Below, piece after piece: positions 8,501 through 20,515 of a stretch of 64,000 nucleotides of DNA. Source of the DNA: Lingula anatina (lineage: Eukaryota; Animalia; Brachiopoda); assembly GCA_051362555.1 (NCBI GenBank), contig CM120649.1, positions 14,198,001-14,262,000 of the forward strand. The letters are read 5' to 3'. Numbering within the stretch: position 1 is the stretch's first letter; each line of letters starts with the position of its first letter. Made by a program: the position numbers and the translations under genes. Under the pieces are notes generated by a model that did no database searches, had not been told where the DNA came from, and saw only the letters and a program-made list of their open reading frames with translations.

Positions 8501-11500
8501 TGGCAGTTAAGTGAAATAGAATACCGCGAGTCAACAACTGATGTCAAAACGAAGTAGGGAATGAACCCATTCATCATATTAATGGGCAATGGTTTAAGTA
8601 TTAAGATTAAGCTTTTTGTATTCTTACTTATTAAAAGGCCATAAGGAAACCAAAAGCGGCTTATTAACCCTCGTCCAAAACAGATGATTGACCTTGCAGA
8701 ATTGGTCAAGGTGAATATTTATTTCTAGACTACTTCAATGACGGGTTCTATACGAGACCTATGCATGCCGAATTCAAATTAAAAGCGTGTGTAAACCGTT
8801 AGTGTTTAAGAGTGCGTATTGAATTCTCTATCCTCTACCAGAATCTCAGATAAATATGTATACTTTTTTTCTGACAATACAGAAAAGTACCATCATTTAT
8901 CTAGAGACATTTTCGTGAATATATCTAGTAAAAAAAAAAAATCAATCTGTGGTCTCGGTAGAGGGTGCACATTCTCCCTTGTAAACGGCAATCTGCAAAT
9001 AAGGCTTATTGTAAACACGTCAAGTATATTGACAAAGAACCAGTCTCATATGTCAGGGTTATAAATGTTCTGTTAGTGCCACGAGTGAAGGAATACCCTT
9101 TAATGTCGCAACATTGGGCACCAAATGAGCTTTCGCGAGTAAACACACGGGTATATTTCTTTATCAACACATCCATCCTGTCTACGATCTGTGTCATTTT
9201 TCACTGCCAAGTAATGATCAAAACGTGATAGAACTGATGATGAATCTTATGGTCCATATCCAAGAGAAGATTAATTTAAACTAGTGGTTTTACGATAAAC
9301 AAGTCTTTCTGGGAATAATGATACGTCTATGAAGGCAACAAAACTACGGAAATACTATTTTATTGGTGATTGTTAAAATACTGAAAGCTGTTTTTTTATT
9401 TAGTGCAAAATTACTTTGAAACAAGAACCAGCGCAGGCCAAAAACCAGATAGCCGAAGTAAATATCCATACGTAGTAAGACAACCACATAGTATATGTAT
9501 GTATATATACGTACAGGTACATGTATAGGATATTTATATTATTATTGTCGGTCATCTGTAGTTAGACCATTTTGCGTGTGTTTCATTTTTTGTTATTTAC
9601 AATCAAAGATATGATTGGCCTGTCAGATCGGCCACACAGGGTGATGGTGGTAGCTTTCCATGTGGTACCAATACTAGAAGCTAAATAATTGTTGCGATAC
9701 AAAAGCCAGTGGAAAGTTGGTTTGTGAATAGGATTGTTGTATATTTGTGTCTTTCTTAAAAGCTGTGCTTGTGGAAAAAAGAAGGACGGATTTCTGCTAA
9801 AACAGACTGATTCTGCAAAGCAACCTTTATATAAAATTACCTAATTGGTGAAGAGACAAAAACCTAGCATATGCCCTTTAAGAAGTGAATTCGTGGCGTT
9901 CTAAAATCAATACAGTTAAACCACATCAGTCCATTTTCACAGTCGAACCATTACAGTACAAAGCTTACATGCATATAGCTATTTTCGTTTGAAGGCAACA
10001 TTTTATGGCACTGAAAACCGTGTATTTCTGGATAAATGTTGCAATAGAAAAGAACAGGCACACTGTAGTCTACAAGTAGTATAGAGTAGTAGTATATAGA
10101 CGGACCTTGGTGTGTGATCTGCCCTTAGTACATGGTCGGAAGCCAAGCTTCCAAGTGCTTTGTTGCGCAATAAATAAATAAATAAATAAATAAATTAATT
10201 AATTAATAAGATAAAATAAAACCATCATTACAAAGCAACGGTGACAGTTAAAGTTATGCTTTATACTATTATCAATTTAACACAAATAGTACATGTGATT
10301 GAATTTTACTTTCGGTAATGTCATACAACCTATAACGTGTATTTCTTATTGATTTTTTTGCTCCAAATCAAACTAACCTCCTAAAAAAGCAATTGTGACC
10401 TTCTCACGAATCACTGCTCGAAACGTCCCTGCACATAGATTCGATGTTTGGTACGACTTCTAATTAAATTACTTAGTTCTAAAGGAATCATGATTCATTT
10501 AGACCCCGATGAATCTTCTTGACATTTCCGGAGGAAAAGCGGCATCGGGTATTTTTATTTGAGGGGCTTTATTTCGTCTCTAAGTGTTGGTTTAAAAAAC
10601 CTTTGTAATATTTAGACACAACAATATGAGCTTTTCAATCAGTTACAATAAAATGTAGGTATATCTTTCTCTAACATTGCAATTACCAACATTACAGCCA
10701 AAAAATCGTCGGCACAATTAATTAATGACAGAGGCAAAGACACACAATGATGTGGACGATTGAACAATGCTATCTTTTCGTGGGGCACAGGATATGCCCA
10801 ACGGCCGGGGACGAGCGCGTTTTTATAATTCGAACAGATTATACCTGGTGGATGAAAAAGAAACGTACTGAAATTTAAAATTAATATCTAAAAATTAAAC
10901 ATGATTAAACTACATTCATCATATATATATAGAGAGAGGAGGTGATTTTCAAGTGTATCTCATCCCCCCCCCCCCCCCATCCAACTGCCCATACACATAC
11001 AGGACAACACTCAACACGCATGTTATCTTACTTCTTGAGTCTCTACCCATAGTTTGCATTATTCCTCTGTTTGTCGAGTCCTTGCTCGTCGTCGACGATC
11101 CAGGTGCTACGCTATGAAAGTCACCAATTGTAGCACTCTTGCTTTCTAGAGTCGACTTCACCGCATTGCCAATCACCTGCCAGACGCTTTCCGTGGACGC
11201 CAATATGCCAACGTGGTTCCACTTGAAATAAGCACAGATGTGCCAAAACATGCGGGCAATTTTGGCGTACGGCCCGACCGTTCTGACAAAAGTGGGAAAC
11301 TGGACCTTGTTAGAGAGTTTACTGGCAGAACATCCATAAGAAACCATCGGAATGTTCATGACCCCCGCCCATAGGCCAACGGGCTCGCAGACTTCGTCGC
11401 ATGCACCCCCAATGTACGCATGCAGCTTTTGGGAATGGTCTCCGTCATCTTCGTAATGCGTGTGTGGGGATATCTCAGTAAAATGGTCGAATAGGCTTAC

Positions 11501-11779
11501 GGCAGCCTCCAAACCTTTATGCGCGTTGCAGTTGGTGTCCATCCATGAGAAGCGAACTGTTCGACCGGGTAAGATGATCAAATCTGCGTTGAGGTCCTCC
11601 ACGGCGATGATGACCGCCGAAGCTGAACGGCGTCCCGCTGGCCACGAGCCAGTCCACGGTATAAGCACTCCGAGATTTACTGTAACGTTGGGATCGGGCA
11701 CTTGCGTTGCATTCTGTGTGTCACCCCAGGCAAGCACGTGCAGCATGGTGCAGGCAATGAGAGGCGTCAACTTGGTCAT
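183..11779 (-). CDS. Receptor (membrane) guanylyl cyclase, natriuretic peptide receptor-like; 3'-partial (cyclase domain expected beyond window start)
   Basis: 13 phase-consistent GT-AG exons: 11779-11032, 7756-7646, 6258-6068, 5770-5635, 5446-5213, 4901-4823, 4437-4341, 3490-3311, 2754-2677, 2426-2250, 1844-1682, 1124-972, 357-183. Signal peptide [22 protein letters not shown]-receptor ectodomain (DTNC...[12 protein letters not shown]...SYGC...[32 protein letters not shown]; juxtamembrane [10 protein letters not shown]); [25 protein letters not shown]; pseudokinase motifs [58 protein letters not shown]. The cyclase call is inferred from this architecture. Confidence 0.92.
1232..1545. mobile_element. 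MITE with imperfect TIRs and subterminal GCAGTAG/CTACTGC repeats (CACTA/EnSpm-like)
   Basis: Left end CCCGCAAGAAAACGCAGTAG matches the reverse complement of the right end (CACGCACGAAAATGCAGTAG). Many internal gcagtag/ctactgc copies. No clear TSD. Confidence 0.55.
4917..4963. repeat. (TAA)n microsatellite
   Basis: Perfect AAT run next to the TM-exon acceptor; similar runs at 5458-5500 and ~26252-26288. Confidence 0.95.
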
Positions 11780-20219: not shown

Positions 20220-20315
20220 TTGTCTTTCGCTTACAGAAAACTGAAAGGTTCTTAAGTTTTGTTTTCGCTAATTAATGTCCACAGCAAACCACAAAGGTGT
20301 GTGTTGAAATACACA

Positions 20316-20515
20316 GTATATCGGGTTTTATACGCAATTGTTTTTTTGCATCAAATCATCCGATTAATATCCTATATATTAATTCTTCCTGGAATCAGCT
20401 CATAACCTAGTTCACGGTTTTCCCGATCATGGTGCACGCATGACACGTTTTTTCTCAGAAAACATATTACTACCCTTATTTATTTGACAGCATGCAATTG
20501 TTCTGTCCAATAGAT
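20316..20515 (-). promoter_or_regulatory. Putative core promoter of cassette 3 (TATAAAA at 20332-20326; CCAAT block ~20507)
   Basis: GTATAAAACCCGATATAC lies ~107 nt upstream of the ATG; motif blocks are collinear with 15541-15735. Confidence 0.55.

Follow-up and report, generated by a model that had tools for sequence, protein, structure and literature searches.

The Lingula anatina locus and its three candidate first exons

We analysed a 64,000-nucleotide stretch of the genome of the brachiopod Lingula anatina (assembly GCA_051362555.1, contig CM120649.1, positions 14,198,001 to 14,262,000), hereafter the window, numbered from its first letter and containing no N. Judging from its sequence, the locus studied here is a single NPR-like receptor guanylyl cyclase gene on the minus strand. 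Three co-oriented paralogous exons, which we call cassettes, lie in tandem upstream of one set of constant exons: c1 (11779-11032; 748 nt, 249 codons plus 1 nt) is the first coding exon in database models, whereas c2 (15451-14746; 706 nt, 235 codons plus 1 nt) and c3 (20219-19505; 715 nt, 238 codons plus 1 nt) are candidate alternative first coding exons. As a preliminary description of this DNA had reported, each begins with an ATG and ends in phase 1 at A|GTAAG; all have a length of 3n+1 and no stop codon. The three match the Pfam ANF_receptor profile from position 3 to about 160 of 353 (E values of 1e-29, 2e-27 and 4e-26 for c1, c2 and c3), the ANF family was the sole outcome of an ESM Atlas search, and all have a hydrophobic N-terminus that represents a candidate leader, as judged by hydrophobicity and not by a signal-peptide predictor. 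The donors of c2 and c3 score 7.3 and 7.1, compared with 5.7-10.6 for the 12 known donors of the gene. Identity between c2 and c3 is 79% at the protein and 87.5% at the DNA level, and c1 shares 29-33% protein identity with either. A (TA)40 run at 19418-19498, 6 nt past the c3 donor, could affect splicing and likely hampers read mapping.

The shared part of the gene, entirely on the minus strand, starts with exon 2 (7756-7646), whose phase-1 acceptor has a leave-one-out score of 9.3. Exons 3-5 (6258-6068, 5770-5635 and 5446-5213) code for the remainder of the ectodomain, exon 6 (4901-4823) for a transmembrane helix that aligns with the NPR1 membrane segment, and exons 7-13 (4437-4341, 3490-3311, 2754-2677, 2426-2250, 1844-1682, 1124-972 and 357-183) for the juxtamembrane stretch and the kinase-homology domain. 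The reconstructed gene thus possesses an ANF-receptor ectodomain, a single membrane helix and a kinase-homology domain. It extends beyond the left end of the window, and the exons for the cyclase domain, located outside, are visible just in the 1109-residue database protein P0154, which carries a PF00211 guanylyl cyclase domain (E 7e-69) and equals c1 plus the downstream exons at 835 of 840 residues. P0154 has the same domain order as NPR1/GC-A (PDB 9bcl, 8tg9, 1t34 and 1dp4; E 7e-215), namely ANF ectodomain, membrane helix, kinase-homology domain and cyclase.

Cassette c1 is 100% identical to P0004 (XP_023931696.1, “guanylate cyclase 32E-like”) and to the first part of P0154. In RefSeq, the gene is divided into that 258-aa head, which uses a near acceptor in intron 1 (10839..10867, minus strand) that ends c1 after 9 further residues, and a 754-aa tail, XP_023931697.1, which omits one reconstructed exon (3490-3311) and runs into an intron. 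The two models look like one prediction that was split, from which we infer weak transcript support; P0154 and the RefSeq entries are gene models and hence no proof of splicing. The exon at 3490-3311 (180 nt, in-frame, phase 0, juxtamembrane), present in P0154 and absent from XP_023931697.1, is a possible cassette exon in its own right.

Splicing partners, promoters and RNA

All three cassettes share the donor phase that joins exon 2 in frame, and the twelve downstream exons (7756-7646 to 357-183) can be read after each of them without a single stop. The possibility that c2 and c3 had private downstream exons, which the preliminary description had named as a way to overturn its interpretation, found no support: each downstream exon was detected just once in the window by tblastn with four queries (the constant region plus three homologues) and by a profile scan of 3505 six-frame peptides, the best match elsewhere having an E value of 1.9. 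Exon 2 is the only visible partner for the c2 and c3 donors, since a search for a short terminal exon common to both found none, their read-through tails are unrelated and chaining is poorly supported. Chained inclusion from c3 to c2 to c1 was rejected, as it would bring in a stop after 4 codons or else depend on acceptors with scores of at most 3.2.

TATA-like elements, pointing to putative promoters, occur on the minus strand 113 nt before the c3 ATG (20326..20332) and, at the homologous position, 108 nt before that of c2 (15551..15559). Their conservation is weak evidence because perfect matches of equal length are also found in the intron flank. Both ATGs are also preceded, at a distance of 21 nt, by an acceptor-like site that could receive a common non-coding exon, so that c2 and c3 may have either separate or shared start sites.

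Four of the nine same-species RNA runs (assigned by species label) were compared, without a positive control, with positions 5600-15900, a span that covers c1 and c2, at 90% likeness. They yielded 12 reads (4, 0, 1 and 7), all partial and without joints. Depth was zero in the bins 11104-11791 (c1) and 14888-15575 (c2), and the traces in bin 7664-8007 (0.13 and 0.06) are not assignable to exon 2.

Selective constraint on c2 and c3

Cassettes c2 and c3 belong to a tandem duplicate, alignable over about 1.6-1.7 kb, that comprises upstream flank, exon and intron start and contains neither exon 2 nor any other downstream exon. On the minus strand, it spans 14139..15735 around c2 and 18806..20517 around c3, blastn pairing 14713-15735 with 19471-20517 at 81% and 14139-14481 with 18806-19160 at 69%. 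Both exons were said to be stop-free, more conserved than their flanks and remote from c1, and this holds: DNA identity is 75-76% in the flanks as compared with 87.5% in the coding part, next to the low identity to c1 given above. The only indel between the two exons is an in-frame one of 9 nt. Frameshifting indels are absent from the 706 nt, where 14.7 would be expected from the 15 frameshift-sized gaps per 720 aligned flank bases (Poisson P of 4e-7 for zero frameshifts, or 6e-4 per lineage), and only 4 of 2000 neutral simulations left both copies stop-free. A haplotype artefact can be rejected for c2 and c3, as their flanks are about 24% apart whereas only 5 of 840 residues distinguish the window from the database allele.

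The comparison of substitution rates between cassettes, recommended in the preliminary description, gave a ratio of non-synonymous to synonymous changes (dN/dS, or omega) below 1 for c2 versus c3, at 0.5-0.6: 0.51 by NG86 (bootstrap 0.32-0.83) and 0.59 by GY94 maximum likelihood (p 0.03), with 0.46-0.48 (p 0.012-0.017) for core residues 37-200, a subset of our own choosing. Differences between c2 and c3 affect 9 of 88 family-conserved positions as against 31 of 127 variable ones (p 0.012), their end branches are nearly equal (0.11 and 0.10), and both retain the four cysteines conserved in at least 90% of the family. Both exons look constrained, and purifying selection has acted on them after their split. 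Because the duplicated unit contains no downstream exon, this selection followed a duplication whose alignable part lacked the receptor body.

Exon boundary and origin of the cassettes

The preliminary description had emphasized that all three cassettes end at the same codon and in the same phase. This is correct but not special to the locus. Among 64 short family matches from other genomes, 60 of which can be aligned at the junction, 37 cease to be homologous at that very column and read on through a donor-like sequence, and the majority of the remainder begin with S or G at this exon 1 boundary column. On this comparison, a large phase-1 first exon is an ancestral trait of the family, so that any upstream copy of it would be in frame. 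Two truncated models of the same receptor group in Priapulus caudatus, P0014 (XP_014664127.1) and P0015 (XP_014672101.1), are labelled GABA-B-like; P0014, which ends at the boundary of exon 1, may be a further head that stands alone.

The best named relatives among the scored proteins are invertebrate NPR-like orthologues, at 38-43% identity to c1 and 31-38% to c2 and c3: Saccoglossus P0001/P0002, Ptychodera XP_070568265.1, Dimorphilus P0003, Acanthaster P0171 and Antedon XP_071950714.1. Unlike the Lingula locus, these orthologues are annotated as whole genes with one head, and the two Saccoglossus proteins differ over their entire length, which suggests whole-gene duplication there. No brachiopod relative was present among the protein matches. 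Trees were built from top-scoring matches and a few full-length cyclases, with 50 rows (44 distinct) and with 26 rows (in the latter, P0004 and P0154 were excluded as copies of c1). They recovered c2 and c3 as a clade (100/100) on a very long stem (2.3-2.5), and the invertebrate orthologues around this clade are those that also surround c1 (93/84 and 84/73, unstarred support). Local copying followed by fast change would be the simplest reading of this pattern: an ancestral exon 1 would have been copied and have diverged rapidly along the long stem, and a second duplication, including promoter and intron start (dS of about 0.2), would then have produced c2 and c3. Database proteins with repeated ANF stretches were also considered as possible concatenated cassettes and discarded, since the three named ones are CASR-type models of Polypterus and the others repeat whole domains.

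Fold of the variable exon and ligand cleft

The structural model of c2, built on 68 sequences, has a predicted local distance difference test score (pLDDT) of 86.5. Its residues 35-235 align to residues 1-208 of the 426-residue NPR1 ectodomain (Z 16.9, root-mean-square deviation 4.5, 194 aligned residues); CaSR and mGlu chains scored within 1 Z of this match. The single-sequence fold of P0154 was unusable (pLDDT 33.5). Sequence alignment places the junction between c1 and exon 2 at the same point of NPR1 (residue 208), where we also take exon 1 of the human gene to end, in phase 1. In contrast with the Lingula locus, NPR1 is not known to have more than one coding first exon. All 18 ANP/DNP contact or pocket residues named for NPR-A in the part of the source available to us lie at 62-195 (10.1101/2020.07.09.196394). 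By analogy, the variable exon would contain the peptide cleft, in agreement with the earlier proposal that the cassettes bind the ligand. The identity of the cassettes to NPR1 is merely 15-17%, so the NPR1 ligand is not transferable to Lingula.

Neighbouring genes and duplications

A multi-exon alpha-amylase gene on the minus strand (23141-35400, with a PF00128 match on one exon) is the upstream neighbour, and the cassette array is closed on that side because this gene ends near 23140. The last alpha-amylase exon codes for a hydrophobic stretch resembling a membrane segment, together with a short basic tail, possibly indicating a membrane-anchored amylase. Farther away, a plus-strand gene (37842-49099) contains several Sushi exons (PF00084), a membrane segment and a long cytoplasmic tail, together with exons that we read as CUB-like and that have no Pfam match. 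At 41275-42779, a 500-nt element is repeated in both direct and inverted orientation (71-92% alike) and is probably a small transposon. Three tandem DUF1647 copies on the minus strand (49745-50530, 59864-60718 and 63021-63870) have 87-89% DNA identity; the third looks broken, no frame of its aligned span having fewer than 4 stops. Between 51374 and 58652 lies a recent tandem duplication of about 97% identity (51374-53731 with 54929-57238, and 54093-55369 with 57379-58652), which is either a young repeat or an uncollapsed haplotype.

Discussion

We consider it probable that c1, c2 and c3 are alternative first exons on one shared receptor guanylyl cyclase body. Exon 1 would be a self-contained phase-1 module, comprising the leader and the equivalent of NPR1 residues 1-208, whose upstream copies are splice-ready at once. 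Each first exon would likely be spliced to exon 2, probably from its own promoter, so that the gene would give three receptors whose ligand clefts are predicted to differ while everything else is common to them. Promoter choice may change the peptide or cue that activates the same module of membrane helix, kinase-homology domain and cyclase, probably in a restricted cell type or stage. The interpretation in the preliminary description is partly supported. It fits the data best, and two of the tests proposed there to overturn it came out in its favour, as no private downstream exons were found in the window and dN/dS is below 1 with frameshifts absent; the phase match lends it weaker support than had been implied.

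Several observations weigh against this interpretation. No junction read or transcript was seen for c2 or c3, the runs compared covering c1 and c2 and having zero depth over c1 as well, and the database models use c1 as the sole head. Within the word and length limits of the searches, a c3-type head appeared in none of 1398 candidate proteins examined with c3 and a c2/c3-type head in none of 153 fetched proteins (best identity, 38%); the exact read-through frames of c2 and c3 were likewise absent from the protein databases searched. The ancestral phase deprives the frame match of value as evidence of cassette use, and the exon 2 acceptor ranks only seventh among the 597 AG sites from 19504 to 7700, six upstream sites scoring higher. 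The omega signal is modest, as the neutral median is 0.79 under the observed transition bias and 5.8% of 500 simulations reach the NG86 value of 0.51, whereas the indel and stop signal is strong. An Arg at position 151, found in 95% of 65 family members, is gone in c2 and c3 together with the neighbouring Pro, Phe and Thr of its motif, c2 and c3 match the family at 32 and 34 of its 48 conserved positions, compared with a median of 37, and c2 carries an additional Cys47. The further tandem duplications in the window make stray copies plausible. Finally, a clade of c1, c2 and c3 is neither shown nor rejected by the trees (8% of bootstraps, p-AU 0.41 with 26 rows).

Several of these points would fit an alternative that we regard as unlikely, in which c2 and c3 are silent relics, being either orphan exon 1 duplicates or the heads of paralogous genes that once existed, and have gone out of use too recently to have decayed. 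An omega of just 0.5-0.6, the loss of a near-invariant Arg motif, the absence of the c2/c3 protein from the databases searched and the tendency of the region to duplicate are all compatible with it, and relics or pseudogenes are common in variable-exon clusters (PMC1885805). Yet the constraint built up after the split of c2 and c3, on units without any downstream exon, and both copies are free of stops and frameshifts; former whole genes would moreover have needed two clean losses of about 20 exons that left no trace. The motif change is common to c2 and c3 and hence predates the constrained period. It is still less probable that c2 and c3 are used with a different body, either that of a gene beyond the window or one that an assembly misjoin has cut off from them. 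Their identity of only about 30% to c1, and a sisterhood with c1 that the tree leaves unsettled, would allow it, but the window has no N gap, no Lingula paralogue with a c2-like head was found among the proteins searched, and a body further downstream would require skipping the whole same-strand c1 gene. Even then, c3 and c2 would still share that body and thereby form a variable-first-exon gene anyway.

We give an equally low probability to c2 and c3 being short secreted half-ectodomains, acting as decoys or binding proteins and made by read-through or by means of a nearby stop exon. XP_023931696.1 models c1 in this way, read-through frames of 286 and 273 aa exist, AATAAA sites follow every cassette and the half domain of c2 is modelled confidently (pLDDT 86.5). 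Nevertheless, the read-through tails are unrelated and that of c3 enters the TA repeat, c3 lacks an AG where c2 has its best near acceptor (14533), and the RefSeq model pair resembles a split prediction. The product would correspond to residues 1-208 of a 426-residue fold, and in the periplasmic-binding fold the chain crosses over between the lobes. Alternative first exons on one receptor body remain, in our opinion, the best explanation for the whole set of observations.

Comparable layouts are well known in other gene families, which limits the surprise. The resemblance to UGT1A and clustered protocadherin loci noted in the preliminary description is real: these, as well as UGT2A and GCNT2, combine tandem large first exons that determine specificity with one constant set and undergo birth-and-death turnover (PMC1885805). 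In UGT1A-type clusters, as described there, splicing has been shown and the variable exons are highly similar, whereas for the Lingula locus it is the DNA layout that is known, with three exons in two classes about 30% identical, in a brachiopod. However, the layout does not define those loci exclusively, because insect odorant and gustatory receptor (OR/GR) genes also splice tandem long first exons to common C-terminal exons (PMC6175461). The latter are the closest working analogy, as the choice of first exon swaps the N-terminal part that bears specificity, although they code for unrelated seven-helix channels in which most of the protein is variable, while the variable part in Lingula amounts to about 240 of 1109 residues. 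Among receptor cyclases, the insect eclosion hormone receptor BdmGC-1/CG10738 is a peptide-activated invertebrate member with annotated isoforms (PMC12393706). In the literature searched, with few subscription papers and no supplements, we found no such layout in receptor cyclases and no report on this Lingula gene. The BdmGC-1 isoforms differ by an ectodomain insert and thus involve no swap of paralogous first exons. If our interpretation is correct, the Lingula gene would be the first variable-first-exon receptor cyclase in that literature.

Receptor guanylyl cyclases are known to diversify by whole-gene duplication. Drosophila has seven genes of this type (PMC13267572). If the splices are real, the Lingula locus would illustrate a cheaper route, in which the exon containing the ligand cleft is copied and the remaining gene is reused. 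It would also constitute a natural domain swap, with three heads on an identical transducer, so that one could test to what extent exon 1 by itself determines the ligand and in what way a half lobe of 30% identity still fits a fixed partner. Since the exon boundary recurs across the family, other genomes may hide heads dropped by annotation, as happened here. More speculatively, and with considerable doubt, a single Lingula cyclase gene might provide a small receptor repertoire, in which promoter-swapped clefts of two classes about 30% alike, and mixed dimers with a hybrid asymmetric binding site in cells expressing two heads, would converge on one cyclic GMP output. On this view, the fast-evolved c2 and c3 heads could serve a narrow role, for instance in gamete or larval chemosensing.

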